From: Bilabrum cf. latius
Taxonomy: Eukaryota
Assembly: GCA_965178125.1 (NCBI GenBank)
Contig: OZ237751.1
Coordinates: 930,001 to 994,000 of the forward strand
Direction of reading: 5' to 3'
Length of the DNA: 64,000 bases
Shown: positions 1-64,000 of the stretch, piece after piece
Numbering within the stretch: the first letter of the stretch is position 1
How the letters are laid out: every line of letters starts with the position of its first letter
Translations under genes and position numbers: made by a program
The notes under the pieces: model-generated
What the model was told of the DNA's origin: nothing
Database searches by the model: none
The model's input: the letters and a program-made list of their open reading frames with translations, nothing else

Positions 1-840
1 CAGAATGCACGCGAACTGCTGTTCATGGTGAAATCGTGGTACTTGCACAGCCTGGCTACTCTATGCTCGGAGCGCGGCCGTCATTGTGCCGTCAGAAGCA
101 ACTACGTTGACATCTACGAGAGAGGTATAGCAATGGCCGCAGGGTCCCCAGCCGAGGTACCTGTTCTAGTCAGTACCATGCAAGAGTTGTGTCGCGGACT
201 ATTGCTTGCATACACTGGTTCGTACGGAGATGCAGCTTGGTATTTAGGCGCGGCTTTAGGATCCAATGTTTTGGGCGACTCTGAGCCCAATTTGCAAATG
301 GATGCGCTGCACGCTAGAGCCGAGTGCTTGTTTCGGCTGGGCCTGCACAGCGATGCAATCCAAGCGTACCACGATACCGACCAGCGTGCTGTCTATCTGC
401 ACGGATCGCAATCCCCCGAGCGAATTCGAGTTCGGCTCTGGCTGTCAGCGTGCCATCGAAGAATGGGTAACATTCTCGCGGTTGTCGCAGAAGTCCAGGA
501 CTTCCGAAGTAAGGTCTCATCACGCATGATAGACGGGCGTTTGGACATTCTGGAGCTTCTTCGGGAAGAGTGGCTAGCGCAAGCAGCCTTGGGCGATTTC
601 GAATAGGCGTACCTTGCGGTCGATCATGTACTCTGTGGGGTTCGAAAACTCTATGGCGAAGATAGCCGGGTGTTTGCCGTCGTATCACTGGATCGGTTTT
701 TGTATGCGGGCAAGACAGACAGAGAGGATGACGCTGAGAAGTCGCTTGAAGCTGGATTGCCGTGGCTCACAATATGCATGGAAGACTTGGGACTATTGGA
801 CAGCAGCGACCGCAAGCGGTAGTACTGGATTCCGGATTGA
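1..840 (+). CDS. 3' part of a TPR-like helical repeat protein (5'-truncated by the window edge)
   Basis: Frame is open from base 1. It has TPR-like helices (ARAECLFRLGLHSDAIQAY), reads through TAG at 604-606 and one later TAG, and ends at TGA 838-840. Confidence 0.55.
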
Positions 841-2185
841 GCATAAGCAGTGCTAGTGAGTGATAGATAATCCACCGCGGCACGGCGTTGCACTTCTGTT
901 ATATTGCCCGCATTATCCGGACATGAAGATGTGTGTTGCAGTGAGGTGGCGTGGCACCATGGCCTGTTCGCGTGTACGATCAATCCGGATTCCGGGTGAG
1001 CGACACACGATGGTGCAGATGGAGTGAGGGGCTCTGAACGGCAGGATCTTTGGTGCCAACGGAGTGGAGCAACGATTCAGAAAGGAGGCGTGGTAGGTCT
1101 TGTCCTCGCACTGCCGTCTGCTTGTTAGTGAGGCCAATGAGGCCTCTGAGATTGAGGCTGCATTTTAGGCGCAGAACCCGCTCGAGGTGCAGGGGCAGAG
1201 ACAGGGCGAAGCAGAGGAGTGCGCGGGGTGGACCAGAAGGACGAGGGCGGCGGAAGGGGGGAGGGGTGATGGCACATCCGGCGGGTAGAGGAGGGTGCGT
1301 GGAGGAGAGATAGCTTGCAAGGGAATCACGGTGGTTGGAGCTCGTGAGAGCGTCAAATTCAAGTATCAAATGTGTGGTCATCTAAAGTGGCAAACTAGAA
1401 CTGCTTCCGTAGCTTACTGGTGCGATAAATCGGGCACTCAGTACACCGCAGGACAAGCGAAATGACCGCGCTTCGTCCAGTCCAGCCTCCCAGGTTGTCA
1501 GCCCGTCTTTGGCCCATCAGGATGATAGATCACTCAGTGGATCGAACCAAGACTCGAGTACTTGCGGTCCTCTGCGTCACGCATGCACCGCGCGGCAGCC
1601 GCCAGCTCTGCATCACGCAGGCCGTCCAAAACAGGGCCCTGATCGCGACGAGCCCGTGCACCGCACTGCAAGCCTGCAGATCCGAGCAAACAACGTGCGA
1701 TGGAGACCGAGAGGACCGAAAGGCTGTGAGGGTGCATGCTAGCGTGATGCACGCCCTCACAACCCCTCGTGCTCCGTACCGAAGTCCAAGCCAAGTAGGC
1801 TAATTCGACTTGATGTAGTCTAGGCAGCTGCTGTACCGTCTCCCGCGCGATTCAGAGAGATGAGACAAGGTTGCAACAGACAGCCGCACCCGTCATGCCT
1901 TGCCGCATTGCCCTAGAAAGTTACATGACAGCAGTATGCACGTTACTCCCTACAGCGCCGCACCAACGACGCAAGCTGTCATTGTCATTGCGAGCAAACC
2001 ACCGGCGGGTCGGGTCAATTCCAGCCTGGGCACGTGAGCAGAGCTGTTCAAGTGCACACTAACAGTGCGCGTGAAGCGGCACTCAGCGATAGACGCTCAG
2101 AGCAACCTCTGCTGCGACTGGCCGCTGGCTAGCCAGACCCTAGCGAGGACCCCGGCTCTTGCCTCATGCCCCACACGAGCGATCG

Positions 2186-2292
2186 CTTGCCGCCCGTGCT
2201 CGTCCATAGATCATACCATGATCTTAGAGATCACTTGCCGCCCGTGCTCGCCCATAGATCATACCATGATCTTAGAGATCACTTGCCGCCCG
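2186..2292. repeat. 48-bp tandem repeat (~2.2 copies) with an internal inverted repeat
   Basis: cttgccgcccgtgctcgYccatagatcataccatgatcttagagatca starts at 2186 and 2234, with a partial copy at 2282. Each unit contains agatcat-acc-atgatct. Confidence 0.9.
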
Positions 2293-2887
2293 CGGACGAT
2301 GACGAGGATGACGAGGAGGGCCTGCCGCGCTTCTGGCCCAGCATGCCGGACGCAGACCCGCCCGCTGCAGCACCGTGCGATCGAGACGCGGCTTCAACGC
2401 TGGAAGCAGCTGCTGCTGCTGCGGCAGCAGCGGCGGCGGCCGCGCTCGCCTGCACGGCAGATGATGGCCCGCTGCTGGCCGACGACGCGGCCGCGCCTGA
2501 GGACGCTGCGCTTGACAGCGTTTTTCCAGTTGATGGGATGACAACTTCGGGCGTTGCTTGGTCCACGATCCTGACCCAGCCCCTCCTGTGCCCCTCTCGG
2601 ACAACCGTAGCGGCGATGGAGCCTGGCTGCATTAGGAAGCGCGAGTCCACGACAATTGTCTGATACTTATTCGCGCCGTTGATCCTGTCCTTCTCGTCGT
2701 CACCTGCAATCAGCAAATGAGCAGACTTCGATACCTTGGACTGAATACGGACGGGAGCAATCGCATCAAGCTCAAGCTGAAGTTCGCGGACGGCTTGATC
2801 GGTCGTCCAGGTACCGGGCAGCTGCTTCGGTAAAATAGTGACGATTTCTACACCGTAAATCCACTCGAATAGCTTCGGTGTATCCAT
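2279..2887 (-). CDS. Small protein with a BRCT-like segment and an Ala/Ser-rich tail (5' structure uncertain)
   Basis: SKVSKSAHLLIAGD..KDRINGANKYQTIVVDSRFL resembles the BRCT consensus, and the ORF ends at TGA. An in-frame TAA just upstream leaves the true start or upstream exons unresolved. Confidence 0.4.
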   Translation of the reverse strand: MDTPKLFEWIYGVEIVTILPKQLPGTWTTDQAVRELQLELDAIAPVRIQSKVSKSAHLLIAGDDEKDRINGANKYQTIVVDSRFLMQPGSIAATVVREGHRRGWVRIVDQATPEVVIPSTGKTLSSAASSGAAASSASSGPSSAVQASAAAAAAAAAAAAASSVEAASRSHGAAAGGSASGMLGQKRGRPSSSSSSSSAGGK

Positions 2888-3615
2888 TCTAAGCGCTTAT
2901 TTGTGCTGCAGGATGATTTTCAGGACGATTCGTCGGTTGGCGATGGCGCCGCGCAATAGAATCGGAAGTTCCGCACTAGGTCTCGAGTCTCGAGTCTCGA
3001 GATGCAACTTTGACGCCACAGCGCAACGTGAGCCGTTGCAGCGAGGCATAGTTCGAGCGCGTGTTCATTTCCAGGAACAGTTGCTTGAATTGGGCACTGG
3101 GGGCAGCCTCTGGGTCTGCGACCGATGCTGTTCTTCGGAGCAAGCCATACAAGCTGGCACTCAGACAGGGCGGGGGCTGTGGGGTGGACTTCAGCCAGCT
3201 AGGAGCGCCTGATTGCGAAATAGCAGACGCACCTTCCGGCCACGGCGTCTCACTATGGGGTGTGATGTGGGGCCCCGGCGACGAGAAGGGCCGCTCGAAA
3301 CTTCTGCCGCTTTGGTCTGCAGACGCTGTGCTGTACGTCCTTCGCAAAGCCAGCAGCAAGAGGTGCACGAGCGCGGGCTTCAAGGAAAAGGTCTACTGCA
3401 CATGGCAGTGCCTCTGTCGCTGGCGGAGGCAACTTACGAGGATGATCTCCAGCACAAAAAATAAATAAAAAATGCCTGCCCTCTGGGGAGATCCAGATGG
3501 GGTGCTGGACATGTCACCATTGAGAGGCCAACGGATGCCCAGACGTGAGGGAGCAGCAACTGGGAGTGTAGATCTGCGCACTATCCCACCGCGCTCCTGC
3601 TCACTCATAATCATC

Positions 3616-6600
3616 TCACCCGTCCACCTCCAGCACACGGTATCCCACCGCGCTCCTCCTCACCCCAAGCACAACCCTACGCCCGCCACCGCTTGCACCT
3701 CCATGCCCCCCATCCTCTGCCTCTCCCAGTGGACTCCCCATCGCCCTCTCCTGCAGCCCCCGCACTACAGGCCCCACCAGCTGCAGAGACTGCTGCCCTC
3801 CTCCTTCCCCTCCTCCTGCTCCCGCATGGTGACCCCCCTTGCCACCCTTGTTCCCTGGATCTGCCCCACCGGGCCTCGGCACCGACAGCCAACCGCCTTC
3901 GCACCAACCACCACCGCCTGACTTGCCCTTCCTGTGCCCGTGCCCGTGTCCATGTCCAGCCGGCCACCTGCCCACAGCCGTGGCTCGCATTCCCAACCGC
4001 AGCGCAGCGTCCACGTCCGAAGGGGCGTGCGGGTAGTGCAGCGATCCAGCTCCGGCACTGCCAGCCGCACCCGACGGCTGCTGCGCCCCTCCCGCCGCCC
4101 CACCGCCCGCACCGCCCACGCCCGCACTCGTCACACCAGGCAGCCCCGTCTCCGGCCCGCCCTCGGCCACCACCACCCACGGCCCGTCCCCTCGCACAGT
4201 CCCGGGCACGAAGGGAACCTCCAGCGGGTGCTTGTGACCCATCAGATCCGCCCTGCCAGCGGCACTCGCACTCGTCACACCATCCTTGGCGGGACCAGCC
4301 CACGGCTCCACCGCGGCATCAACAGCCTCCCTGATTTCACCCACGGCCAGCAGCCCCACGTGCAGCTGGGCGGGCGTGCCCTCCGGCAGGTCGGGCCCAC
4401 CGGGTGCCTTGCCCGCTGCCTACCGATGTGCCTGCAGCTTCCTCAGGGCCTCGGGGACGTGCACGACCACGGGGGGCTCCACCACGGCCACGTGCCAGCC
4501 GACCGGGGGGGCTGCCTGGGAGGCTTCTCGGGCGCGCCTGGCGAAATCCTCGGCCTCTTTATCTTCGGGTCCCCGCTTGTCGGAGAGGTAGGCCGCCCGC
4601 TTGCCCAGCCTGGCTGCCTCTGACCTGCACACCCAGGGGGCCTGCCCCAGCGGTGAAAACCCAACGGATAGTCCGGGAACGTCGTGCTCGAGCAGGACCC
4701 GCGCACTCGTCACACCACCGGGCGACAGGCCCACAGCGAGGACACGGATCGAGGCCCTGCCCATGGCGGGCCAGGCAACGCCGAGGGGAAGCACGGCCAG
4801 CGCGGACCGTTGTTCCCTGGATCCTGATCCTTGTTCCCCGGTGATAGAAGTGCTCACACCGGAAGTAGAGGCGCCGTCTATGCTCGATTCTGCGGCCCCT
4901 GACTCCTCACCGGCATGGGCGCCAGGTGCTGCTGCGTGAGAGCCTGCTGCTTCTGCTGCTGCCGCTGCTGAACCAGATCGGTCGCTGGATCCTGCCCCGC
5001 TCGATGGGGTGCTTGAGTCTGTTTTCGATTCCGAGTGGGAGGGCGGGCCGGTATGCCCACCTCCTCGCACGGCCACAACCAGCGGGGCGCCCACCTGCAC
5101 CCTTGCCACGTGGGCCCCCATGCAGCTGGTCTCCGCCCTCCCCAGCCCGAACGTGCCGCTCCCGCCGTCAGAGCCGCCGCCAGCGGATCCGCCCCCCGAC
5201 CCTGCCGTGATACCTCGCAGGCCAGGAGGGGTGATGGTGCCTGCCACCGCCACGGGGACGTCGTCTTTGACCACCTCGGATCCAGCCGTCGATCGGCCAG
5301 AGCTCACCAACACCTGCCCAGCGCTCGAGACGCGCACTGCCAGTGCCTGCTCCAGCACCCACTCGGGGAGGGAAGGACCCTCACTCTCCTGGGGAGGACC
5401 GCCGGTTTGACCACCCTCCCCTCCCTCGTCCTACACCTCCGCCGCGTCTGTCAGCAGCCCGGGCGCCGCCCTCGCCCCGCGGCCCATCCACACCGCGGCC
5501 GCTCCCTCCCCCACAGCCCAGTCCACCGTGCAGGGCAATCCGCCGTGGTTGGACCCAGCCAGCAGCCGCCTGGGGTCGCAAGGGTCCCTTGCCAGAGCGT
5601 ACACCTTGGTCTTCTAGGAGAGCCGTCCGGCGCCCGTCCGCCTGCAGTCGGCGAGCAGCATGCACCGCCGGCGGCCGTCCGTCAGGGCGGTTACCCGCCG
5701 CGCCCCGGAGAGTGTTGGTCCGCCGAGCGCCTGCGCCAGCTCGGCGAGCTCTGCGCCCCAGGCCGGCGGGGGACGGGCAGCGCCTCCATTTCGGCTCCGA
5801 ATCGTCGCGGCGGTGGTGATGCCGCTCTGCCTCGGAGCCCACTCCAGGCTGAATCGGCAGGCGGCCGCGGCGCCCGCGCTGGCAGACTCAACGGCTCTCT
5901 GCAGCGCCGCCCCCGCGAAATCGGGCCGGTAGCCCAGCACCCGCGCTGCCGTGGCAGCCGCCCTGCCCTGCTCCTCCGGTGGCAGCGGCAGTGCGATGCA
6001 CCCGCTCAGCAGCCCGGAGTGGTGCGCCGCCACGGCCACCGCCAGCGAACAAAACCCTGGGAGCCCCGCCAGCGGAACCGCCTGGATCGCCTTCGCGGCG
6101 CCGGTCCACTCCGCGGGAGGCTCGATTGTGGCAAGAAGGGGAGGGCAGGCGCTCCACCCGACCCAGTCCCGCGGCTGGCTGTGTTCCCCGGAGCTCCCGA
6201 GGGGCTTGTTCCCTGGATCGACGGAAGGGCCCTGAGAACCGCTGGCGAGCCACGACTCCCGTCCCGCGGGCGAGCCGGCGTCCGCCTTGAGGAGGCACAG
6301 CTCCGTCCGGCCCCGCCGGTGCGCGCTCCAGCCGCCCACCGCCACCGCCATCCCGCTCCGGGCGCACACGGAGAGGCAGGTGCCGGGAGCGGTGCCTCCG
6401 CTCGGGAGCACCACCACGAGGGGGCTGCTGGACGCACTCGTCACACCCAGAAGCGCGCTCCAAGGCTTCCAATCGGTCGGCGAGGGGGACAGCCTGGTCG
6501 TTCTCTCGAGGAGCGACGCAGCCGCCTCTACCCCTTCACTCATCACACCTAACGAATCATTCGTAACACTCCCGCTCGCTAGATCCGTCAGCGGCCCGCT

Positions 6601-8582
6601 CCTCCAGCACAGGACGGCTCCTTTCGTGGTGACGGCCCACAGCACGCGCCTCGTGCTCGTTGCGATGGAGATGGAGGCGCCCGTGCGGCTGCAGATCGTT
6701 GTTCCCTGGGCGACTGCCCGCGCGGCCGCTTCCGGCTCGGACTCCGGGACGAGCCCTCTTGTTCTCTGCTACTCCAAAGTGAAAAAGCTCCGTGGCCCTC
6801 CTTGGGCTACCGGCCCGATGCGGCTTGTGCCTGCAGCTGGTGGGGCTAGGGCTGGCCTGTCGACGGCTGTAGCAGCTGCAGCCCCACCAGCTGCAGCGCC
6901 CTCCGGTTGCCCGACATGAGCACCGCCGTGCAATGCACCCTACCAAGCGATCGCCTCTTTTGCGTCCAGGGCGCGGTCCTCGGGCAGCCGCACCAGCCCC
7001 GCACCCCCTTGGGCCGCGATGGGCCCGCACCGCCGAGCCAGGCGCCTGAGTCTGGCCACCCTCGGGTCGGCCGGGGACCAGGTGGCCAAACTCGCGATGG
7101 GTCCCGTGGAGGACAGGCACTTGGGGTGTGGCCGGAGCCAGGTCTCGATGCGGAACCAGGCGCCCGCAGAGTGCGCGGCGCCCGATTTCAATCGGAGAGC
7201 CAGCTCGGCGGTCGTGAGGCATCCCAGTGCTTCGGCTTGCGGCACCAATGTGACGAGTGCGATGCTACCGTTTGCGCAGCCCAGGGCAAGCAGGTTGGTT
7301 CCACAAGGCGCTGCGCACCGGATCGAAGCGGAAGAGCCGCCGGCCGCCTCCAGCGCGGTGAGCGGCATCGAAGCGGAACAGCCCGCAGTGACGTCAGCGA
7401 TGATGAGTGCTGAGTCAGTCCACACCACGAGACACTCCCCTTTAGGCGCGCACCGGTGTGACGAGAGCACTGAGGCGGCCCTAGCTCCTGGGTCTGTCGC
7501 AATTGGGTGTTCGCCCTGCTCGCCCAGGAGCAAGTGCTCGAAGCCATCTCCGGCCTATGCTTGCTTTTGTAATTGTTCTTGTTCTTCTCTGGCTTTGTTT
7601 ACACCTTCTGGTGTCTTAGATTCTGCTGTTGCTGAGCCTGAGCTGCCAGTCGCTGCGCCCGTCGCTGCGCTGCCGGTTGCCCTTGCCTTCGGGTCCGCAA
7701 CCGGTTGCAACCACCACGAATCCTCGGCGCTGGGCGCGCTCCCAATGCCACCGCTGGCCGACGACGCACCCGGTTGTGACAAATATGAAGATGAGGAAGA
7801 AGGGCGAAGAGAGGCGCCCGGCCAGAAGACCACGCCCAGGGGCTGACCGGCCCTGGCTGGGGCCTCTGCCACGTGCCAGGACCAGCCGGCGCCGGCACCA
7901 CCCGAAGAGGTAGAAGATGATGATGCTGAACCAGAGGTACTTGCTGCCTGTCTAGGTTGTAGGAAGCCCACTGTGCCGGTGGAGGCAGGTGCTCCCTGCT
8001 CGGTTGCCATCGGGTATGCCCCCCTCAGCCTCGGGATGGCGTCCAGCGCCTGTTTCAATCGAGTTGCAGCCTTGCCGGGGCGGGCCCCTAGACTTGCTTC
8101 TGTTGTTGGATCGGCTACAGGAGGCCTGCCGTCGAGCATTCCATCTCCGTCGAGTGGGGACGCAATTATTGGTTTCTCAGCTGCGTCTACACGCTGCTTA
8201 CGGTGGGCGGTCAAGGCATCTGATGCCAGATGCACTGCGTCCATGTGCGCTTGTCGCCTTGATTCTGCATCTTTTGCCCCGTCCAATACTGACTGGAGCG
8301 AGAAAGAGCCTATCGTCCGTCCGCGCTGCAGCTCATCATCAGTCGAAACGATCAGGACGTCTCCCTCCTGCGATGACGGCAGACAAAGGGACGCAGCTCA
8401 AGCTACGGCTTATCGTGCAATCAATGATGAAACACAAGGTCGACATGGAATCGTCTAACCTCGTCACAGGAGGCGATCCAGTTTTCGTACGGATGCACAG
8501 CAACTGCCTTCGTCTTCGGGACCTGTTCCAACGATGCTCGATATCCCGAGTGAATAGGAGCGCCAATATAGCATCTTTCCAT
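3616..8582 (-). CDS. Large WD40-repeat protein with low-complexity insertions (~1620 aa; intron 8368-8459; 6 in-frame TAG)
   Basis: The spliced junction gives the WD-like AVAVHPYENWIASCDE|EGDVLIVS. ORFs 7555-8286, 6940-7533, 5614-6645, 4420-5358 and 3616-4359 share one frame, separated only by TAG. Further WD-like blades include TNLLALGCANGSIALV and KVYALARDPCDPRRLLAGS. A further 3' exon is possible (GTGAGA near 3619). Confidence 0.6.
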
Positions 8583-8756: not shown

Positions 8757-11700
8757 TCAGCCCACCACAGACCTATTCCGCCCTCGTCCCCCGTGCCTAC
8801 GCCTCCCAGCCCCCCGCCCACCCCCACGTGACCCACCTCCACCGCTGTCCCCAGCACCGGCCCCCTCGTCCCCTGCTCCCCGGCCCCCAGTTGTACCCCC
8901 AACGCGACGCACATGGTACCCGCTTTTATTGAGGAAGTACACGTGCTGCCCCTCAAGCGCCTGCATGCGCTGCATCTCACTGCGCCCCATGCCGGCTGTG
9001 GAGCTCTGGATGCTCTTCTCGGCCTGCTTCAGCGCTGCCTCCATCGGACTCGTCACACCCCTGCGCAATGCATCCCTCAGCCCTTGCCTCTCGAATGCCA
9101 CCAGCCGCTCCACCACCGCCGCGATCTTCCCCTTGGCCTGATGCAGGGCCCCCCTCGCCCTCCTGACGGCCTCGGCTCTCTCCTAGATCCTTGCCACAGA
9201 GGCCCGCCTCAGCTCCGCCATGCGATCGCGGAGGGCGCCAAGCATCTGTTGCCTTTCTTGCTGGATCCTCTGCTTGAACTTCTCCCTCGTCCTCGTCCTC
9301 GACTCGCTGAATCCCTTGTTGATGGACTGCAGCAGTGCCGCGGCACCAGGCAGCAGCACGCCCGTGTCAAGCGGGCCAAACGCACCGCCATCCCCGCCGT
9401 CTCCGTCCTCGTCCTCCTCCTGCAGATCATCAAAGTGCCCCGAGGGAAGCTTGAAGGTCGAAAGCGAGCTCGCGGCGGTGCTTGTGTCTGCTCCAGAGCC
9501 GACAGCGCCCAGTGCCCCGAGCTCCTCGCTGCCTACTCCATCGCCGCCAAAGGCGAAGCGGAAGCTGGGGTCCTTTGGCTCCCTAGCCGGTGCACTGCTG
9601 TCGCTCACAAAACTCGACCATGCACGACGATGGGAGTGGCTTGCCTCTTCGTCTCCGTCTTCCTCGCCTGCACCAGTGCCGCTGCCACCTGCAGCGATCC
9701 CTCTGCGGTCCTCGGCCAGCAATCCACCGGTGTACCCCTTGAGATCCGCAGGCATCCGGAGCTAGAATCCAACCGACCCTTCCTAGCCCTTACCGTCCTC
9801 GTCCTCGTCCTCATCTTCCTTGCCAAAGCTCAGGTGGCGGGCCGTGGACTCGCGCTGGGCGCTGAACGTGGGCATGCCATTGCCATTGCCATTGCTCTTA
9901 CCCTTGCCTGCCCCAGCCTCAGGCGACGTATCGAAGCTAAAATCGAAGCTGCTGCTGTCCCCGAAGCTGAAACCGGATGGGTTCTCCCCTGCCGCTGCCT
10001 TAGTTTCTCCTTCTCCCCCCCATTCGGCCTGCATTGGCACCTGTCCAGGACTCGCTGTAGCCGCGCGGCTCACCTTTTTGACTCGACCTGCGCTGTCACC
10101 AGCAGCACGAGCACCACCCATCCAAGGGAACTTTTGGTCAGCACCTGCACTGTGAGCACCACCAAAGCTGTTCGTGCTGCTCTTGGTCCCGCCAAAGGCC
10201 CCCATTTGCATGGAGAAGTTGAACTCGGACCCGTCTGCAGCGACGGAGGCCCGCTGCCTCGAAGCAGGCTCTCGTGACGAGCTCCTGCCGGCATGTTTGC
10301 CAGTACCGTGCTTTAATGGGCGCAGTGCTGACGCTAGGCCCTTGTCAGTGCTTGCGTGGGTTGCGCTCTCTGCCGCGTCTGCATTGCTCGGCGCACGACC
10401 GTCATCTCGCGAGTCCGTGCTCTCCACCCTCCTCTTCTTCTTCCTGCCCCCGAGCGCGGCGTCCTTTGCAGGCTTAGTCGTGCTCTTGCCTGCCTTGGGT
10501 TGCTTGTTCTCTCCATCAGCATCTGCCTCGAACTCGAAGGCGCATGAGTCAGAGTTGCTGCTCGAGTGGTTGCCGCTCTGCCGCTCATCGATCGTGTCGC
10601 CGCTTCCTGAGCTCGGTCCTCCTTGTTGCCCACTGCCGCTGTCCTGTGCATCGTCTTCTTCTTCGTCCTCCTGCGTGCCGACTTCAACGTAGCTGACCCT
10701 CGATCGTTTCCTGCTGGACCTCCGCCTGCCAGCCGCGTCGCCTGGTCCAGTTGAATCGAATGCACGACTCGCTGGATCTTGCTTCTCGCCGGGAGAGGCA
10801 TCACTAGCATCACCTGCAGCTGTGTTGCTGGTCGCGGCAGCTGCATCAGCAATGGCCTTGGCTCTGATGGCTCTGCTCTTGTCAGCATCTCCAGCGGCAG
10901 CCGAGTCGCGACTGTCTGCAGATTGGCCGACGCTGGGCTTGCTCCTGGGAGCCGGAGCACCCGTAGGCTTGCCGGCATGTCTGCGTTTCCGCTGCTGCGT
11001 CCTCTCCTTTCTCGTGGTGCTGCGGCCCCTAGGCTAGGGCCTGCCTCCACTTTCTTCCTTTTCCTCTTCGCTGTCATTGTCCTCCTCTTCCTTGTCCTGC
11101 ACCATTGACCGGGCTTTGGCTGGGGGTGCGCGTGCGAGTGCTCTGGCCTTGGCCTTCGAGGCCCCATCTGTATCGCCTGCCCCATTGCCCTCCAGCGCAT
11201 CGTCAAACTCGTCGAAGTCATCGGCAGCTGCCTTGATCTCCTTGCGCGATGCTGCCGAGGGCCTCCTTTGCCTGCTTGGAGGCCTGCTTGGAGGTCGCCT
11301 CTTTTGACTGGTCTGCTTCTTCGACTTGGCACCTGCTGCGGAGCGGCCAGCAGAGCGCGAGGACGGCTTCTCGCGATATGCTTGCTTCGTCTCTGTATCC
11401 CTTTCGCTTGCATTGCCGTCACTGGCGTCCTCGGCAGAGGATGGGTCCGACGACTCTGGATCAGCTGCGGCACCCGAGGATGTCCGAACTGTGGCTTTGC
11501 TGCTGCGTCTGCGTCCACTGGAATTCGAACCGGCGGTCTCGTCCATTTCATCATCCTTAGAATCAAACTTGCCACCCTTGCCTTCTTGTCCATCGTTGTT
11601 GACGTCTGCAGCGTCACCGCCAGTCCCCGGCTCCGACTCGGGCTCAGCAGTGATGGCATCCGAAGTGTCTGCTGACCCGCGACGCCGATGGCGCCCACGA

Positions 11701-14700: not shown

Positions 14701-14864
14701 GAAACAAATACCCTGGAGAGCGGCTGCACGTCGGATGGGAGCAAATGCTCATCTCCTTCTGCCGCTGCAACAAGCGCAGACACGTAGTCAGCATGCGAGG
14801 AATCCTTCTGATGCAGTGCCTCTACTTGCTATACCCAGCTGGAAAGTTCACTTGTCTTCGCCAT
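8757..14864 (-). CDS. ~2035-aa protein: N-terminal helical domain, PH-like domain, long acidic/basic disordered region, C-terminal coiled coil
   Basis: Six listed ORFs (13701-14639, 12498-13640, 11034-12467, 9783-10427, 9183-9755, 8757-9116) are in one frame joined by TAGs. The frame extends up to ATG 14864 and ends at TGA 8757-8759. Confidence 0.7.
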
Positions 14865-14992
14865 TCTTGGAAAAATCGAGTGAGAGTTGCTCCACGATGG
14901 GCGAGCATCACGCGCGGTCGCAACCGAATGATCGGATCACTGGTCGCAGGTCGCGCGAAAGGCCAGCCCTCACAAAGCTACAGACTGTAGGC

Positions 14993-17008: not shown

Positions 17009-17143
17009 CGCGGGGGGTCTGCAGGGCGTTCGACCTCATCAACTACTAGCCAGGCTCAGAGTGCAGTGCAACCGAGACGCGCGGCTCAAAACTCGGCCAG
17101 TCACACTGTCGCCATTCCAATCGAATTCTTAAAGCATTCCAGC

Positions 17144-19346: not shown

Positions 19347-19593
19347 CAGAGAATGAAAGCGCTGCTATCTGGAGGGGCAGGCCAGTCTAGCTCTTTCTCG
19401 GTGTCCGTTGGACACTGCATGCTCGACCCGCTGGCGAAATAGCACTGCTCTGCACGTCAATTCCTAATTTCTAACCATCGCACATCCAGGATCGCATCAC
19501 ATTTTCCTGGGCTACAAACGTGACGACCTGAACAACAGAAATCGAAAGCCGTGACTAATAACTAGTCCCTCGAGCGCCTGAATCGAGGCAGCA

Positions 19594-45751: not shown

Positions 45752-45825
45752 TGCAGCGTGGCTGGGCCACCTTGAGAGCTTGTCAGAACGAGTCATCCGG
45801 TGATCTAAACATGTAGGAGGTCAAG

Positions 45826-53473: not shown

Positions 53474-53717
53474 TCTGGCTGTTTGCAGCGCTTGGCCCCT
53501 CTATCTTTGGGACAAATTCGTAGACCCAGTGGTCACATTACGAACACGTCTTCGCATTCTGCCACAATAGCGTGAAATGCCTCGTCCTAGGCCTCGCTGA
53601 ACGGAAACCAAATTGCGCGGCGACGGCGGTCGCCACGAGGTTCCGCTGTGTGGTACCTTGGTCGCTGTTGACTCCACCTGGATCATTTCTAGGGTCCTGG
53701 CTTCGCAGGAATCCAAA

Positions 53718-56700
53718 ATGAAGGCCGTATCAATGGCTGCACTTGCACTTATTTCTATTTCTTCTGCAGTGGCGCAGACCACCAGTGTTTCGGCGCAGAT
53801 GAAAGGCCCCTCGTGAGCCTTGTTGTGACAGTGCTGTGTCTGCCCCATATTTGGCCGCTTGTTTGGGATTCTGATGTTATTGAGCGCGTTTTTTGTGGTT
53901 TATTGTTGAATCAAGCGAGTATAAGGAAGTCTTTGGGGCATTAAGCTGCCAAGCGATGCCACGGGTGCCCGCTGCCACGGTGCGAATCTTCAGAATTGCC
54001 GATGTACTCCCCATGATCTTCTCTTTCCTCCACTCAGGTACTTCAATGAGCGCACGACACCTTTCAATGTCACTTTGGGCTTCAGCGCGCCGGTGTCTGG
54101 GATCGACCAGTCCTCCTTCCGCGTGTTCGGCGCAAACTTGGTGCAGCTGATCACCCTTTCCAAGCAGATCTACAAGCTGACGGTGACGCCTGGCACCAAC
54201 CGAGACGGCAGCATCTCGACCTACATGCAGGTCAGCCTGCTGCAGAACTCCGCGGACCAGGGCAACAGCCCTGCCTTCTACACGTCGCAGTACAGCGAGG
54301 ACGCCGACAAGCCGGGCTCGGCCAACCTGGGCGCCCCGTCCTACTACACCACCGGACAGACGAGGCTGCTGGTCCAGACCACCTTTTCGAGGGGTCCCTT
54401 GAAGCTGGAGAACTACCGCTTCCTGCAAGAGGACCAGGTCACCGTGTCGGGTGGGGCGACCCTGGACGCGGTGCAGGCCACCTGCCCACGGTTCTAGGGG
54501 GGGCCGCTGGGGGGGGAAGAGCCCGCCGTGCTGCCCGCCAGCGATGGGGACGTGCCCATGGCGGCAGATGCAGAGGCCGAGGGCGGCGCCCGCCGCGCGC
54601 AGATCTTGCCAGGGTTCGGCCCTTGCCTGCTCTACACCCTGGTGCTCAAAGTGGCGGGGGGGCCCAACCGGCAGGACATCTCCATCGCGGTCAACAAGGA
54701 CGCGCTGGGGAAGGACTCCAACGCGGCGGCCCAGGCCACGATCCAGTTTGACCAGGGGGGCCGCATCGATGAGGCCAACCTGACGTACAACGGGCGCACC
54801 ACGTACGGCCCCAACGACCAGGCAGTGTTCGGCTCCGTGACCATCACTCCCTACGTGGACCCGGAGAACATCACGAGCGACATCCTCACCATCGAGAGCC
54901 CCGACGTCATCCTGGCCAACTTTCAGGCGTTCGGGGGAGGCGGCTTCGGCAGCCAGACGCCCTCCACCTCTCTTCGGTTCACGCTGTACCCCACCGTGGA
55001 AGAGAACTTCACCATCTCCATCCCCGAGGACAAGCTCCCCCAGCCGGGGAACAAGCCGCTCTCCCAGACGATCCGGTTCACGGGCAGCTCGAGCGGAGGG
55101 GGGACCCGCCCAGCGCGGCCCATCCGCTTCACCATGTCGGGGCAGACCCAGTTCGACGAGGAGACCGCGGCGAACGTTCCTTTCTCGCTGCAGGTGTTCA
55201 TCTCTGACTCTCTCAAGCAGAGCATCGGGGACCTCACCCAGCTCGTGTCGGCCAGCAACTTCCAGGTGACCGGCGGCGGCTTCATCAAGCGCGAGTGGGC
55301 AGACTCGTGGCCCGCAGCCTACTACGACGACCGCACAACCACCTTCTTCTTCAACGTCACCGTGCCGGCCGACCGCAGCGGCGTCTACCCGTCCCCCATC
55401 CGCGTGTCTCTGCTGTCCTTCCCCAACGCGACCATCGACTCGAGGAGGCCTCCGCAGAGGAGCGCCTTCTTCACCTCTGTGCTGCCCCGCGTGCAGGTGG
55501 GCATCGAGGCCCCCGCCTACTACACCGTAGCCAACGACTCGAAGAACGTGCCCCAGCCGCAGCCCCTGTACATCAACGTGCACCTGGACACGCCACTGGA
55601 CAGGCCCACGCAGTTCACCCCCGGCATGCTGCTGCTCACCGGGTGCGCTCTCACCGGCAACACAACCAAGACCGACTGGAGCTTCACCAACAATGCCCAG
55701 GAGTTCCTGGCTCTCGTGCTGCCGCAGGTGGACGAGGACGGCAGCTTCCAGGACATCTCCATCCGCGTGAACTTCAACTCCCTCGGGTTCACACAGGGGA
55801 ACAACGGCGCCACGGCGCAGCTCTCGTACGAGCCCGGGGTCGCCAACGCCGAGCCCGCCAGCACCACCCTCGAGGTGCCCTCGGTGCACAACGGGCAGGA
55901 CCCGTTCGTCGTCACCGTGTCGTTCGACCAGAGGGTCCGGGCGCCGCGCAGCGCCGGCGGAACCAACCTGGGGTACTGGCTGTCCAACCGCCTCACGGTG
56001 CTCAACGGCTTTGCCCAGGTGTTCCCCGACCCCAGCTACGTGCAGTTCCCCACCACCGAGATTTAGTTCCGGGTGACCCCCCGCTCGGAGGCGAGCGTGT
56101 TCCTCTACTTCCCCTCCAACGTGGTGGCCCTCCCGGGGAACACGTTCAACCGGGTGAGGATCCCCTACGGGGCCGGCACCAGCGCGCCCGCGCTCGCCAG
56201 CATCTACGGCGACGTGGTGCACCAGGGCCCCACGGGCCGGGGCAGCGAGTTCGACGGCATCCTGGTGACGATCCAGTTCTCGCAGGAGATGCCCGGGATC
56301 GAGAACCTGAGGTACTGGCAGGTGGTGCGCGTGTACGGCGGCACAGTGCAGAACTCGCAGTACTCGACCCCTTTCAGCTCCTCATCCACGACCTACGCCC
56401 AGCTGCAGGTGGTCCCGGACGGGCAGGAGGACGTGGTCATCCAGATCCCCGAGAATATCCTGGGCGACGACGGCGTGCAGAACCTGGCCAGCACCAAGAC
56501 CATCACCTACACCCCCGCCCCCGCACTCGTCATCCTCAGCGGGCCCCAGACGCACCAGGGCCCCAGCAGCCTCGTCCGAGTGGTGGCTTCCTTCGACCGC
56601 CCCGTGACGGGCGTGAGCGAGTCGTGCCTGGGCGACCTAAACGAGCGGGCCACGGTCAGCTCGGTCAACAAGGAGGACGACGAGGGCCGCGAGTGGTCCT

Positions 56701-58406
56701 TCGACCTGTCGGTTGCAACCGAGGAGGAGCTCGACCTCCAGGTGGGCGGCACGTGCGTGTCTTCTGCCGCGGGCAACTACGCCTCGAGGGTGCTCACCGT
56801 GGGGTACACGCCCGCCGCGCCCCCGGGTGCCCCGGCCACCGTGTCGATCGTGGCCCCCGTGCTGCACGACGCCAGCGAGTCAATCGAGGTGGTCTTCCAG
56901 TGGAACAAGAACGTGAAGGGATTCTCCGCGCAGGACGTGGTGGTGTCCCCCGCGGGGGTCATGAAGATCGGCGGGCTCACGCCTGACGCGTCGGGGGCCG
57001 TGTACAACCTGCGCATGTGGTTCGCCAAGCCCATGGATGCAAGCTCCCAGGTGACCCTCAACGTGACCGTCAAGCCGTCGGCGGTGGAGACCGGCAACGA
57101 GGCGAGGAGCACCTTAATCGTGTGGGACCAGTACGGGCCCGCTCCCTCTCCCGCGCCGTCCCCGGCCCCTGCCTGCCAGGAGGTCACGTGCTCGGGACAT
57201 GGGCAGTGCGAGGCTGTGGCGCGTGAGGGCCCCGGCATGGGCTCTGGCATGGCACCGCGGTGCGACTGCGAGACGGGGTACGGTGGCTTCGCGTGCTCGT
57301 ACGTGATCCAGACCCCTGCGTGCGCCAACCGCATCAAGGACGATGGGGAGTCCGACGTCGATTGCGGCGGGCCCTGCCGGCCCTGTGCCGAGGGGCTCAT
57401 GTGCATGCAGCCCTCGGACTGCGACTTCGGGTCGGACTGCTACACCGTGCCAGCGGACAGCAGCCGCGCCCGCAGCGAGTGGGAGACGTACTCCGTGGGT
57501 CGGGCCCCGGCCGCGCGCAAGCTCAGGTCTGCTTCGTCCTCCTCCCTGGGCATGGACACGGGTACGGGGGTGTGCCAGAGCTTCGCCATCGGCAACGTCA
57601 CCAAGGAGGTGGTCAAAGTGACCTGGGCCTTCAGGGGCCTTAGGCTGGCAGACGTGTCCTCCCGAGTGACGGCAGCGCTGCGGCATCGCATCCAGCGGTA
57701 CGTCAACAAGGGCACGGGCGGGTCTCTTGTTCCCCCGGTGCTGCTGCGGCTCAGCGAGATCCTCGTGACGCGCGTCTCTGGCTGGATGGCGCCAGCCTCG
57801 AACCAGCTCGATTAGCAGCAGCAGCGCGAGAGGTCTCTGATGGCCACCAACCAGTCGGACGGCGTGACCATCGCCCTGCAGATCGGCATCAACTCCACCG
57901 CTGACGCCCCATCCGTCATCGGCGCGCTCAGGAACGCCCTTGCCAGCGGCGTGGTGGCCACCAACCTCATGGGGGACCTGCCCGGGGTGCCCCTGGCGTC
58001 CGTTGAGGACCCGGGGGACGGCAGCGGTGCCCCCTCGGTGGGGGCACCGGTCCCCGCCCCGTCCTCTCTCCCCCCCATCCCCTCCCCCGGGCCTAGTGGG
58101 GGCAAGAAGAAGAACGACGTGGGTATCGAGGTCGCCGCGGGGGTGGCAGCGGGCGCGCTCGTCCTCGGTCTCGTGGCCGGCGCGCTGGTCATGTACTGCC
58201 GCCAGAGGTCCGACTCGGAGCGACTCGCCGAGAGGCAGGCGGCCGAGACCACGGGCCAGCAGTACCGCACCGCCATCCACGTGGGCGAGGACGGCCGCGG
58301 GAGGGTGGTGCGCGAGCCGGTGGCCGGCGGGGACTCGACGAGGAACCCGCTGGACATGAAGGCGGACACAGGGGCCTACGACACGGGCGCCGTGGCGGCC
58401 CAGTGA
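53718..58406 (+). CDS. Type I surface receptor/adhesin B, paralogue of A (~1487 aa); intron 53813-54037
   Basis: Signal peptide MKAVSMAALALISISSAVAQ. The intron is at the same GP(S) phase-2 site as in paralogue A, and the domains are colinear. TAG at 54495, 56064 and 57813; ends at TGA. Confidence 0.85.
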
Positions 58407-59238
58407 GGAATCCGATCCTCGCGTGGGTGTGTGGCAAGTGCAGTGCAGTGGCGGGAAGGGTGATGGTGAGGGTGAGGGTGGTAGCGAGCAGCGAAGCGAG
58501 GTGATCGATGGAGCGTACGCGCTTCTTGTCGACCTCGCTTGCTGCGCGCTCCTCCCTTTTCTCTTCTCTTCCTGTGCCTCTGCACTGCCGGTGCTGGCAC
58601 CGCCGCTAGACTTTTGCTTGTGTGTTCAACGTGATAGGCAAGTGCCGGTGCCATTGCCGCGATCGGCGGGTGTGATGAGGGCGCCCTCAAGTCGCGGCAT
58701 ATTTGCGTGTGACGACTTTCTTTGACTTTTTGACGGTTGGTTTGATTGATTGCTGCGTCAGTGTGCGTGCATTTTGAAGCGACATGCCTGGCTGATTGCC
58801 TTGTTACCGCGCGTATTGCGTGAGGGCGAGGCAGGCGAGCGAGCGGCCCTGAGGGAGAGATCAGGTGAGGAAGAGAGGCTAGCATGCTGGACAGCAAGTT
58901 GCGAGGCAGTGGTGGGGGGTTGAGATGTCTCGCTGTCCCGCTTGCTGGGTTGTTCCTCCCTCCCTTTCCTGTTTGCGCTCACTCGCCGGCGGCATCGTCG
59001 CGCACTCAAACACGTTCTCTGATTTCGTCTCGTGTGCATGCGACTGCATAAGACCGCTCATTCTGGGACCACACCCACTTGTATGCACCAGGTATGCACT
59101 CTGTAAACGAGCAAGATCGAAGCTGGATCTTCCTGCATAGTTTTGCCACCTGCTTGCAAAACAGGAAGTAGGTTGAAAACGGGCCAGAATCGCTCACGCG
59201 CTCATTCTTAGGCTCAAGGTAAACAAGCATCCGCGAAT

Positions 59239-59928
59239 ATGTCTGTAGTACCCGACCTTAGTCGCTTTCCAGACTCGCGCGAGCGAGACGTGGTGGGAAA
59301 CAAGCTGCATTTCTACGTGCACAGGCCCGCCGTTTCCGGCGAACTCAGCGCGGCTGGCGATGGTAATTCTCACGAGAAATACAAAATATTCGACCGATCC
59401 ATCCGACTTATGGAACTGACCGATGATGAAAGAAAAGTTGTGCATGATCTCAAGAAGAACATCTCGTTCGTGGCCATGGCGCGGACGAATGTCCTGTTCG
59501 ACTGGTTGCAGCGTTTCGGCTCCAAGTTCCTGCAGAATCACGGGCTGGTCAAATACCAGGGCGGAGCATACCACACCCATTTGATGGATGGAAGCAAGTG
59601 CTATACAATGTACTGGTTCGAGGATTCTGAGCGCGGCCTGATCGCCCCCTTCTGCTGGGGACCGCACGAGAAGGACCCGTCCTAGCTTGGTGACAAGGCC
59701 AGGAGCAAGTGCATGAAGAGCAGCGCTGAATGTCTGGAAGCAGCGTCCCGTATGTTCGCTGCGCTTAAGATGAGGAGGGGCAAAGAGTACGAGGAGAGGT
59801 TTGGGGCCATGGGGCACGAGCCAGTCCACGAGGCTCTCAGCCGACGAGCACGGGAGCTGGCGGCCAAGGCTTCCTCGGAGCGAGGTAGTGCTGCCGCCGG
59901 GGGATCTGGAGGAGGATCCAGCTCGTGA
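59239..59928 (+). CDS. Hypothetical protein, 229 aa
   Basis: Two ORFs in frame joined by TAG 59683-59685, with globular-looking composition; ends at TGA. Confidence 0.5.
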
Positions 59929-60313: not shown

Positions 60314-63300
60314 TTAGGGGTACGGCGTGGCGACCGAAAACATCGTGCGGATGTCCAGGCTGTTGCGAAAATCAGTTGCGCTAAATCCCACCCCCCAATC
60401 TGCCGGGGGCCTCGCAGCCTCTGGTACGCTGTAGTCGCTCCAAGATATAAACGTTACGGTTTTTGGCACCCCAGGCAAGAGGTGAACCATGTTTTCATCG
60501 AAAAATCCGGGCAGATACGTCTGCAGGTAGGTGTACGGGGCGACGGCTGTGGACGTCATCGTGACCGAGGCGTACGTTGCGTTTTGTGGCGAAGGGGCCG
60601 GCGGCTTCTGCTCCCAGAATGCATCCGTTCGAGAGCCTCGGAAGGACAGCGTCCCGGTAGAGGTGCGCGTGCGAACAACGACATCAATCTGCGGGATGAC
60701 CAGCCGTGCTTCGGACAAAGAAGCGGGAAATAGCGTGTAGTACGCAGCGGCTACAGCGCTGGATGCCGTCCCCGACACACTGCCTGTGTCATTGCTTGGC
60801 CTGCGCTGATTCTGCTCTCGAAGCGCATTAAGACCGGCAGTCGCACGGGAGTTCTGGATCCGATAATCCTGAGTGCCTGTGGCTTCAGCCTCGACTACTG
60901 CCGCGTCATGATCATGCGGGGCATCAGTCGCGCTACTCGTTCGATACAGCTGCATGCGAACCATCACGTCTTCGGCCTGGAAGCCCGACAGCACGCTGGC
61001 CATTGGTCTGGCGACGACAATCCCGGCGCTCGCGGGTGGCATGGACACGGTGACGTTGAAGCGTCCCGCGATGTTGCCGTTGCTGTACTCGATCAGGGCA
61101 ACCTCCAGCCTGCCGGTCCAATGTTCCGTGCCGTCCCACGCCACCCATGCCTGCAAGTACGGCTCCGAATAGTTGGCCGCACCCGGCGGGATAATGCGCC
61201 GACTGGACACGGCAGCGCCTACCATCAGGTCAGCCATGGCGGCCTTGGCCTCGTAGTGCATGGCCTTGAGCCGGGGCAGCTCTCCGTACTCCACGGAGCT
61301 CCACGACGGCGCGACCCAGTTGTTGTTCCACTGCCAGTAGCACGCACCGCCATTGTAAGATGGTGTGCTGGTGCGCAGCAGGCGGTAGAACCGAGTCTGC
61401 AGCCCGGTGCACCGGGCCTGCTCCACTTGGGTGAGGTACACGAAGTTGGCGAAGGAGATCTGCTGCTTGAGCGGCATGACCGTGCCGTTGTCCTGGGCAA
61501 AGTACGGGGGCAGGGGGAAGTTGGCGCCCGCTTCCTGCCTCAATTCAAGCTGACCCCCGCCGTGGTGCTGCCTGTGCTCCTGAATCGTCGAGTTCCAGGC
61601 CCAATCGGAGGACGGAGTGGTGTAGGCGAACTGGGAGTAGGGGCTGTCCATCGACTGCACCCCGTACTCTGACACGAATCGGCCCTGCGGCAGCCGGGTG
61701 ACGTCATCGCACGTCTGCGAGAGGGGATGAGGTGGGACACAACCAGCAACAGAGAAACCTTCATTTAGCAGCGAGGCAAGCACGGGCAGGATCGTTCATG
61801 CACCAATCGAATCGAATCCATCGACTCACAGGCGAGTAGTCGTAATGTCTGACGTCCCCATAATCGGGTGAGAAGGCATCCCCGTACCTGTGAATGAACA
61901 ACCCCTTGTCTGGACGGTCGTAGATGGCTCCGTTCGAAGGAGAAGACGCGAAGAAGAACGTGTACGGGTCCTCGCTGTACATGGCGCGGCGGAGACCGTT
62001 GTCGAAGAGGATACCGAGGTCTGTCGTCAGCAGCTGCACCTCGGTCTGGTTGCCGTTGGTGCTGCGGACGGTGTCAATCACTGCTTCGTTGGACCCGCAG
62101 TACATGGCGATGGAAGGATGGTGAGCCAGCCTTCGCATCTGCACGCGCGTCTCTTCTTCCACCAGCCTGACGAAGTCGTCGTCCCTCGGGTACAGGGATG
62201 AAGCGAAGGAGAAATCCACCCATAGCAAGATGCCCGACTCGTCAGCTGCCTCGAGCAGGTCGTCCCGTCCCATGTCGCCGCCCCCCCACACCCTTGCAAA
62301 GTTGAAATTGCCCAGCTTGCCGGTGTACATGAGGCGGCGCTGCCTGCCCGGTGACACCCTACCGTCATACGCATCCTGGGGAACAATAGAGGCCCCCTTG
62401 GCGAAGATGGGCACCCCGTTGATTCGGAAGTAGAATGTGAGGCCGGTCGCATTGGAGCCTGCAGGCGGAGGCTCCTGGACGAGCTCAACGTAACGGAACC
62501 CCGTCCTCTTTGTGACCGAGTCAGCATCTGCCGCCACCGATTCCTATCGTGCCTGTCTATTCGGCAAAGCCGACCCTTTGCGCAGGCCCCCGGCCCCGCT
62601 CTGATCGTTCCTGCCTGGAGTGAATGTGATCATGACGTCATACAGCGGGCTAGACCCCAGGTCTCTCGTCCACCACCAGTCCACGAGCGAGGCAGGCACG
62701 GTTACATTCACCGTCACTGGCACAAGAAGGGGAGAAGCTATGTCATCGTCTGCGTCATCGCCGGGACCCGCGCCTTGCCCGCACCCGGGTGCAGCGGGGA
62801 GCACGACGTGCGTCTGGTTGTATGCGTCCGTGCCCTTGATGATGGCCGTCAGAATGCCCTCCACCTGGGAGCAGTCGTTGGCTCTCGCCAGCTTTGCCTT
62901 GCAGCGCACCACGAACGCGTCGCCCGGGATGGGAGACGCGTCGGTGGGGGCAGCAGGAGGGACCGAGGACGCTGCCGCATGGGCGGGCGAGCCGGGCTCT
63001 GCGGGATCGTCGGCCGGCCTGACGAACACAGCCGGCTGCCAGATGCGAGCAGAGCCCGCAGGCACGTGTACGAGACGCATGCCTCTCCAGATGCCGGTGG
63101 CCCCAGCGCTAATGCCCCAGTCCCAGCCGCCGTTGGCTGGCCAGGTTCGAACCTGGTTGAGGTTCGGGAAATTGTCGGAGAACTGAGCACCGGGGACGGT
63201 GTACGGGTACTAAGCAGCCCGGTTGATTGCGTATTTGGGGGTTGAATGGATCTGCACCTTGACTTTGGCGCTCTGGCTACCCCTGAGAGCGCTCGTGACA

Positions 63301-63707
63301 TCTACAGTATTTGATACGAACGCGTTCTCGGAATGCAAGACAGCCTTTCCGTTCACGAACACCGTGCTGATGGCATCGATACCATCCACTTCTAAATACA
63401 CTCTTTCGTTCGCACTGACCACGACGTCTATCGTTTTGGTGTAGGTCCACTCGTCGTATGCGATCCACGCCGATGTGACATCGTTGTTACTAACCATGGG
63501 CTCTGGGATTGTGCCGCTGCGCAGTAAATCTAACTGCACCTAGCCAGGCGTACTACCGTTGATGGATATGGATCCATTGGAGTTGACTACAGCCCAGCCA
63601 TCACCGTCGAGGGAATCCACTACCAATTGTGCAAGTGTGACGCCCGGCATCGTTGCGGCACCGAACAATACCACAGAGATCCCCCACAAAGATCCGGTTG
63701 CTCTCAT
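60314..63707 (-). CDS. MANBA: Secreted GH2 beta-mannosidase, ~1092 aa; intron 61715-61829
   Basis: Signal peptide, WDWG, FYFRINGVPIFAKG, RVWGGG, HHPSI..CGSNE (acid/base), RFVSEYG (nucleophile) and YWQ.N..W.APSWSSVEY. TAG at 63540, 63210 and 62544; ends at TAA. Confidence 0.9.
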
Positions 63708-64000
63708 ATTTAACGGTTGTATTCGCTCCGGTGCGCCCCTCACTGGCACTAGCGCGTCGCTAGCGCGAGCAAACGGCAATGAGCCACCAGGGAATCTCGT
63801 TGATGAACCTTCCCTCAGGCTCTCCCCCAGTCTAGCTGGAGCTGCGCAGCTACCGGCACCAATGCAGTTGGCTGGTGGATGTGGTGGCGCGTAGGATGTG
63901 GACGTGGCCGACGTGCCAGCCGTGGTCGCAGCTCTTGCTGCCGTAGGAGCTAGAGGCGCTCCGCCAGTCTACTCTGCTGATCCGAAAGCAAACGAACACG

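Follow-up and report, generated by a model that had tools for sequence, protein, structure and literature searches.

We analysed a 64,000-nucleotide stretch of DNA from Bilabrum cf. latius (contig OZ237751.1, positions 930,001 to 994,000), which is called the window here and whose protein-coding frames contain many TAG triplets. We found that the organism very probably (probability about 0.93) reads UAG as glutamine (Gln) in its cytoplasmic translation and keeps UGA and UAA as stops, as in NCBI table 15. The nuclear genome from which the window comes is compact, GC-rich and intron-poor. Its G+C content was 59–70% in every 4-kb bin, and reading TAG as sense gave a dense series of long frames on both strands. 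Eukaryote-type Pfam domains were found in 8 of the 9 open reading frames (ORFs) of the first scan, and there were no phage genes in the Pfam-scanned ORFs. An earlier note on this DNA had proposed that UAG is read as Gln, and the proposal was supported both by columns in which Gln is invariant among homologues and by codon pairs between the window and a sister species.

TAG at glutamine positions

The family-A (organellar, POP-type) DNA polymerase gene (28852..31635, minus strand) has 5 in-frame TAG codons and ends with TGA at the canonical ...WYEAK C-terminus. Pfam search of its protein gave DNA_pol_A at 1.9e-79 and a 3'-5' exonuclease domain at 2.5e-11, and the best match among 5.8 billion proteins, with 62% identity and 98% query coverage, was from Cafeteria roenbergensis, followed by unnamed Logan and JGI proteins and by other stramenopiles. 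The Gln of polymerase motif C (LLQIHDE) is written as TAG at 29008..29010 on the minus strand. This column was Q in 120 of 120 polymerase homologues, and the codon is CAG in the sister species, which is represented by metagenome contig L001. NCBI table 15 (‘Blepharisma nuclei; some phages’) translates this TAG as Q. Two TAGs of the L001 polymerase were found on further columns that are Q in 120/120, and the window has CAA and CAG there.

The gene for YjeF_N / NAD(P)HX epimerase (NAXE; 31758..33152, plus strand; Pfam YjeF_N 4.5e-28) has one GT..AG intron (32487-32666), three exonic TAGs, one intronic TAG (32547) and a TGA end. The Gln of its DQLMELAG motif is TAG at 32181..32183 on the plus strand, and L001 has TAG there as well. 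When the best 150 representatives from 1.84 billion proteins were aligned to the spliced protein, this column was Q in 133 of them, with 5 gaps and 12 other residues, and it was Q in both of the solved structures that aligned there, mouse AIBP (2dg2_A) and yeast 1jzt_A. The residues within two positions of TAG were also most like those around Gln, which led Glu by a weak 3.2 ln units. Pyrrolysine at UAG was ruled out, since the codon occupies Gln columns.

L001 was one of 45 loci obtained when metagenome contigs were scanned with the C-terminal half of the polymerase. It was syntenic with the window over seven genes, and its polymerase protein was 89% identical to that of the window, with DNA identity of 65–79% between L001 and the window. 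In-frame TAGs of L001 numbered 6 in the polymerase, 11 in the gene of family A, which encodes a large lineage-specific surface-type protein, and 16 in the ortholog of gene 8757..14936, the N-terminal part of which had 33% identity to its L001 ortholog over 799 residues. Codon pairs were taken from eight ortholog segments, and a column was used if 8 or more of its 16 flanking residues were identical, which gave 25 columns with TAG on one side. The partner codon was CAG in 10 of these columns, CAA in 3, TAG in 1 (the YjeF_N site) and a codon for another residue in 11. Under the same filter, ordinary Gln was conserved as Gln at a rate of 0.61, and any other residue was paired with Gln at a rate of 0.054 or less. 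The 13 Gln partners among 24 gave a binomial p of 0.53 against 0.61, in agreement with Gln, and of 4.7e-11 against 0.054, which excludes the other residues. With an empirical substitution table Gln had a lead of 31.8 ln units over Thr, the runner-up.

Between the window and L001, UAG exchanged mostly with CAG. The family A TAGs at 35959-61 and 35932-34 face CAG in the L001 ortholog, and so does the TAG at 18543-45 in the sialate O-acetylesterase-like gene, whose TAG at 19032-34 faces CAA in a column below the local-identity filter. In the nucleoside hydrolase gene, the TAG at 28302-04 faces CAA in L001, and an L001 TAG faces a window CAG.

Paralogs within the window were also tried as a codon test and were rejected, as the columns of family A are variable and the members of family B are too diverged. 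The family A copies 33529..38214 (minus strand; 7 in-frame TAGs, TGA end, 5' intron 38070-38309) and 53925..58406 (plus strand; 3 in-frame TAGs, TGA end) were identical at 640 of 1419 aligned residues and gave two TAG/CAG pairs, and these columns are variable because a third member, P0121, carries T and D there. A homologue search with the family A protein matched 2 proteins, one of them useful.

In-frame counts, gene ends and transcripts

For codon counts we used 20 non-overlapping long ORFs, drawn stop to stop with TAG as sense and counted from the first ATG. Their 17,746 codons contained 98 TAG, 589 CAG, 150 CAA, 0 TAA and 0 TGA, and the zeros for TAA and TGA are a consequence of how the ORFs were drawn. 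At least one in-frame TAG was present in 19 of the 20 ORFs, and UAG made up about 12% of the Gln codons. The count of 98 is an upper bound, because some TAGs are intronic and a small number are probably in 5' leaders, which leaves approximately 90–98 in-frame TAGs in the 20 ORFs. Three of the 47 in-frame TAGs between 27001 and 47000 were intronic according to spliced contigs (32547, 43619 and 43649), and those at 29028, 28806, 38516 and 38594 are probably upstream of the true starts, as judged from likely start codons. Given the upper bound of 98 in 20 ORFs, the earlier estimate of more than 70 TAGs in about 18 genes was a fair one.

The two off-frames of the same stretches (35,492 triplets) contained 214 TAG, 84 TAA and 509 TGA, which meant that TAG was as frequent in frame (98/17,746) as out of frame (214/35,492). 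The longest frames free of TAA and TGA reached 2059 codons, and the off-frames were rich in both triplets, so such frames are under selection. ORF length was nevertheless rejected as proof of TAG recoding. There were 36 ORFs of at least 300 amino acids under the standard code, 56 with TAG as sense and 94 with TGA as sense, so reading TGA as sense lengthened the ORFs even further, as expected where G+C is 59–70% and TGA outnumbers the other stop triplets. Since ORF length proves nothing here, the case rests on homology across the TAGs. The UAG share of Gln codons tended to fall with G+C at third codon positions (Spearman −0.43, p = 0.06), as did the CAA share (−0.56, p = 0.01), so UAG behaves like a minor synonymous codon.

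Among the 20 ORF ends, 17 were TGA and 3 were TAA (14993-14995, 45749-45751 and 60314-60316), the latter exactly where the earlier note had placed TAA terminators. Five ortholog pairs had C-termini within 4 residues of each other, and their 10 stops were 7 TGA, 3 TAA and no TAG. The polymerase and the esterase ended with TGA in both species, and in the other three of the five pairs TGA and TAA were swapped: the nucleoside hydrolase had TGA in the window and TAA at the same residue in L001, YjeF_N had TGA in the window and TAA in L001, and the monooxygenase had TAA in the window and TGA within 4 residues in L001. The family B paralogs 38219..40822, 41190..43271 and 43481..45751 share a C-terminal motif and end with TGA, TGA and TAA, respectively. 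Thus TGA and TAA interchange at orthologous and paralogous gene ends, which bears out the claim that UAA and UGA are still stops, and TAG was absent from the 13 ends checked (10 ortholog, 3 paralog). No TAA or TGA interrupted a homology-supported frame in the window.

Sequencing runs were compared with parts of the window to follow the TAGs in transcripts. The region 22001-32000 was matched by 8 run rows from 4 studies (reads from 2025), none of them recorded as RNA. Four runs (X2, X5, X7 and X8) were aligned to 27001-47000 as assembled contigs, which may conceal rare variants, and not as raw reads. Four GT..AG joints on the gene strand were present in contigs of X5, X7 and X8: one of 180 bases in the YjeF_N gene (in an X5 contig), one of 240 bases at the 5' end of 33529..38214 (in all three runs), one of 126 bases within gene 38219..40822 and one of 144 bases in gene 43481..45751 (43553-43696, from X5). 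The X2 contigs were unspliced through the first three joints, and no listed X2 piece lay over 43553-43696. Because X2 crosses three joints unspliced, the spliced contigs of X5, X7 and X8 were taken as transcripts and X2 as DNA.

No changed letters were listed for X5, X7 and X8 across 27001-47000. Contig cover was counted from the listed pieces only, so the numbers of covered TAGs are minimum figures. At least 30 of the 47 in-frame TAGs of this region were under listed pieces of the three runs and unchanged, including the motif C TAG at 29008..29010 (X5, record 9). At least 13 of the 47 lay within contigs that have a splice joint of their own. These 13 include the YjeF_N site and the 7 TAGs of 33529..38214, of which X5 covered 5, X7 covered 5 and X8 covered all 7, each unchanged. 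Fourteen exonic TAGs were outside the listed cover, namely all 9 of gene 45990..47969 and those at 31549, 30622, 38516, 38687 and 44207. At contig level, editing, splicing-out and assembly error can therefore be set aside for most TAG sites, as the earlier proposal of a sense codon implied: at least 30 of 47 TAGs were unchanged, 3 of 47 were intronic, and the TAGs were present both in runs of four studies and in the sister species.

Several results weigh against reading UAG as Gln in this organism. Among the 24 partners, 11 were not Gln (K2, N2, L, E, S, D, A, G and R); this is ordinary Gln turnover at the divergence of the window from L001, at which single sites prove little. The TAG columns were variable in most solved-structure alignments, with Y/C/A and H/N/K in the mannosidase, E/D in the nucleoside hydrolase, Y in the esterase and H in the monooxygenase. 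The lack of TAG terminators is by construction for 15 of the 20 ORFs, and a TAG was found within 7 codons of the stop in two ORFs (1..840 and 19582..21990). The runs taken as RNA are labelled automatically with no more than a guess of ‘RNA?’, X5 being marked ‘probably DNA’, and their RNA nature is deduced from the splice joints. The placement of the organism in the Cafeteria clade, given below, rests on one gene. tRNA scans found no tRNA genes of any kind in the window, L001, L002 or L024 (the last two being further polymerase loci), no eRF1 gene was found in the window or the metagenome loci, and neither the window nor L001 had an Rfam match. Finally, the evidence for Gln at UAG consists of DNA and contig sequence.

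The TAGs near gene ends leave a small opening for occasional UAG termination, and UAG could then be ambiguous, meaning Gln inside genes and stop near the mRNA 3' end in some genes, as in the Condylostoma/karyorelict type of code. One of these TAGs precedes the stop of ORF 1..840 by seven codons, and the other stands directly before TGA (TAG-TGA tandem at 21985-21990) in the membrane-protein gene, where the TAG at 21985-87 could be either the last Gln or the first stop. Two of 20 ORFs with a TAG in the last 7 codons compare with 0.77 expected, an excess that is not significant (about p = 0.18), and the true C-terminus was independently checked for only 5 of the 20 ORFs. At the ends that could be compared, TAG was found at none of the 10 orthologous stops and none of the 3 family B paralog ends, and the organism has the dedicated stops UGA and UAA at hand, unlike the known ambiguous codes. 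We therefore consider an ambiguous code improbable, with a small chance at most, and prefer UAG as a plain Gln codon.

That the TAGs are untranslated, being introns, sites of RNA editing, pseudogenes or assembly errors, is hardly credible. It is true for the 3 of 47 TAGs that are intronic in 27001-47000 and probably for a few others in 5' leaders, but at least 30 of 47 were unchanged in transcript-bearing runs and at least 13 were in contigs with splice joints, the letters were identical in runs of four studies, some sites are in invariant catalytic columns, the same genes of L001 carry in-frame TAGs of a different set, and frames run up to 2059 codons without TAA or TGA.

Equally hard to credit is a code of the table 6 type, in which UAG and UAA both mean Gln and UAA is just rare in a GC-rich genome: TAA is indeed the rarest stop triplet (331 vs 785 TAG on both strands), and the frame stays open for 158 more codons past the TAA at 60314, but the CAA:CAG ratio of 150:589 predicts approximately 25 in-frame TAAs beside 98 TAGs and none was seen, TAA stands at 3 window and 2 L001 ends that coincide with TGA ends of orthologs or paralogs, the 158-codon extension overlaps an opposite-strand gene, and the weak last alignment of the mannosidase reaches chain residue 852 of 868 at query residue 457 of 493, so that the solved chain is nearly at its end where the TAA stands.

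Other genes of the window

The remaining genes with Pfam domains were also interrupted by TAG. The inosine-uridine nucleoside hydrolase-like gene (27045..29060, minus strand; IU_nuc_hydro 4.5e-24) has 7 TAGs stop to stop, about 5 of them in the likely coding part, and a TGA end. The sialate O-acetylesterase-like gene (17304..19346, plus strand) has 5 TAGs and a TGA end, and matched Pfam SASA at 2.4e-8 and PDB 8f9o_A at 5.7e-28. The copper type II monooxygenase-like gene (14993..17035, minus strand; Cu2_monoox_C 2.4e-10, Cu2_monooxygen 2.8e-7) has 3 TAGs and the TAA end at 14993-14995. The beta-mannosidase gene (GH2; 60314..63998, minus strand; Glyco_hydro_2_N2 3.3e-40, Ig_mannosidase 1.1e-10) is in two frames, with 4 TAGs in the N-terminal frame and the TAA end at 60314-60316. 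PDB 6ddt_A matched the N-terminal frame at 1e-61 and the C-terminal frame at 1.3e-23, and its alignment passes the frame break from chain residue 527 to 529; because the structure alignment continues across the break, a short intron near 61715-61830 likely splits the two frames.

The protein kinase and armadillo-repeat gene (22371..25940, plus strand) has 4 TAGs and a TGA end, with Pfam matches to Arm at 4.9e-113 (12 stretches) and to Pkinase at 1.4e-8, and it contains at least 12 near-identical Arm repeats. Downstream of it, at about 25950-26900, we found a degenerate partial second copy of the kinase C-lobe, the linker and one Arm unit, perhaps a pseudogene or else a paralog that has been truncated. 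The multi-pass membrane protein gene (19582..21990, plus strand), which matched no Pfam family, has 4 TAGs, the last of them (21985-87) immediately before the TGA stop. L001 lacks the membrane-protein and kinase-armadillo genes at its positions 8600-12400, and in the window these two genes are present between the nucleoside hydrolase and the esterase (17304-29060).

The other frames of the window are lineage-specific and comprise an EF-hand protein, the two paralog families and low-complexity giants. The EF-hand protein gene (49466..53899, minus strand; EF-hand_7 1.8e-14) has 12 in-frame TAGs and a TGA end, and the two long low-complexity genes, 3616..8397 and 8757..14936, both on the minus strand and ending with TGA, have 6 and 8 TAGs, respectively. 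Four paralogous lineage-specific genes at 38219-47969 (3 on the plus and 1 on the minus strand) have a common conserved C-terminal motif, and none of them matched a Pfam family. At least two probably begin with MGC(G/A), a hint that the predicted proteins are acylated at the N-terminus, and one carries an in-frame (GI)n microsatellite. The third family B gene (43481..45751, plus strand) has 6 in-frame TAGs, 2 of them inside the intron 43553-43696, and the TAA end at 45749-45751. On parts of the family A gene (33843-35972), a second X2 contig of depth 39 showed many differing letters, a 27-base insertion and several skips, and it is probably a further family A paralog or an allele. A scan of small ORFs (59107..59928, 2279..2896 and others) for conserved families with further invariant sites found none. 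The runs that matched 22001-32000 are filed under four coded organism labels in four studies, and the flagellate may be a companion or a contaminant of other sequenced organisms.

Lineage, known codes and meaning

A tree of this single gene, the polymerase, with 37 rows (quick IQ-TREE, LG+C20) joined the window and L001 with support of 100 and placed them inside a clade of eight rows (SH-aLRT 93). This clade also contained Cafeteria roenbergensis with L024 (99), P0003 with L002 and P0008 (100), and P0002. The organism is thus probably a heterotrophic stramenopile of the Cafeteria clade (bicosoecid-like). The earlier remark that this DNA does not look like that of an AT-rich ciliate fits with Cafeteria as the best named match and with the Cafeteria clade in the tree.

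Polymerase frames were walked back from the C-terminus in 30 loci, and 24 of these had no TAG in frame. L008, L015 and L018 had one TAG each, at least 711 codons upstream and outside the matched part. L027 (39% G+C) had one and L031 (62% G+C) two in-frame TAGs in frames that were broken after 139 and 115 codons, which could be introns or could come from other organisms with a changed code. L001 was the only locus of the 30 with TAGs throughout an unbroken coding frame. In L006, L008, L019, L021 and L024, a TAG stop came right after the canonical C-terminal residues. In L002, 3 of 5 long sense ORFs had their sole TAG shortly ahead of the following TGA or TAA, at distances of 3, 20 and 44 codons, a pattern that would be expected if TAG is a stop in that organism. 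By this one gene and the metagenome contigs, the reassignment appears to be confined to the lineage that unites the window with L001, and to have arisen after that lineage parted from the Cafeteria line. Its origin looks recent and independent because the nearest sampled relatives end genes with TAG, which agrees with the independent origin suggested earlier.

Cafeteria roenbergensis, the closest named relative (62% polymerase identity, same clade), has its polymerase recorded as an uninterrupted 787-amino-acid protein, and in its sister contig L024 the gene has a TAG stop; both would fit the standard code. The genome of C. roenbergensis is GC-rich and compact, and Cafeteria is a cultivable model flagellate and a host of giant viruses and virophages. 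For Halocafeteria, a genome of 47–48% G+C has been described, and the code is not mentioned in the available part of that source (10.64898/2026.07.28.741278).

Stop reassignment has its classical hotspot in the ciliates. To our knowledge, nuclear stop reassignments outside the ciliates are few, and those that split UAG from UAA are fewer. According to the accessible text of a survey (PMC11687900), UAG alone has changed to Gln in two phyllopharyngean ciliate lineages, in Protocruzia tuzeti and in Iotanema spirale, and UAG has changed to Leu in a rhizarian and to Ser in Scotinosphaera; a stramenopile was not among the stop reassignments given there. The fornicate I. spirale is like the organism studied here in being a non-ciliate flagellate with UAG as Gln and UAA and UGA as stops, and in both, UAG has changed independently of UAA, its usual partner in reassignment, as far as the accessible parts of PMC5304391 and PMC11687900 go. 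Iotanema belongs to the Metamonada, whereas the organism of the window is a stramenopile with 59–70% G+C, a sister species and standard-code relatives, and since the supergroups differ, the two origins are independent. The ciliates of Phyllopharyngea and Protocruzia have the same codon table, but here it is found in a stramenopile with spliceosomal introns and a compact genome.

Codes in which UAA and UAG both mean Gln are listed for many ciliates, Ulvophyceae, Hexamita, Streblomastix and Amoeboaphelidium in the same accessible text (PMC11687900). These lineages resemble the present one in the change from stop to Gln, probably through a mutated anticodon of tRNA-Gln, and differ from it in that UAA is reassigned there and terminates genes here. 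crAss-like and other phages also read TAG as Gln with table 15, as stated in the available text of PMC9523058, but the DNA of the window is cellular and eukaryotic, with spliceosomal introns and nuclear-type genes.

We found no report of a nuclear UAG reassignment in a stramenopile in a search of full-text literature, with subscription journals and supplements outside the search, and no stramenopile nuclear code change is given in the available parts of 10.64898/2026.08.26.747235 and PMC11412368; a published stramenopile report may exist. The code itself is a known one in a new, independent lineage. On balance, we lean towards regarding it as the first nuclear code change in stramenopiles, recent, independent and confined to the small clade of the window and L001 beside standard-code relatives, at about 60–70% G+C.

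The change could have come about in the following way. By analogy with other lineages in which UAG or UAR became Gln, a tRNA-Gln gene would be duplicated and one copy would gain a CUA anticodon, which is one base from CUG, and eRF1 would lose the recognition of UAG and keep that of UAA and UGA. New UAG codons would then arise mainly by C-to-T change of CAG, and the heavy preference for UGA terminators (17 of 20 genes here) would keep the number of damaged genes small.

If this is true, AT mutation pressure cannot explain the change of UAG at about 60–70% G+C, and the strong preference for UGA terminators may have cleared the way for it. Because AT-driven codon loss does not apply here, the case tests models of reassignment. 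For annotation, gene callers with the standard code would cut proteins at every TAG, and public annotations and metagenome bins of this lineage would be fragmented unless table 15 is used. Whether recoding shields the host from standard-code viruses is pure speculation. With this finding, a further major group of eukaryotes would have an independent origin of the reassignment. The sister species and the relatives with UAG stops would provide a comparison for finding and dating the changes of tRNA and eRF1, and with a cultivable flagellate beside it, the lineage could become a tractable species pair for how a stop codon is captured.

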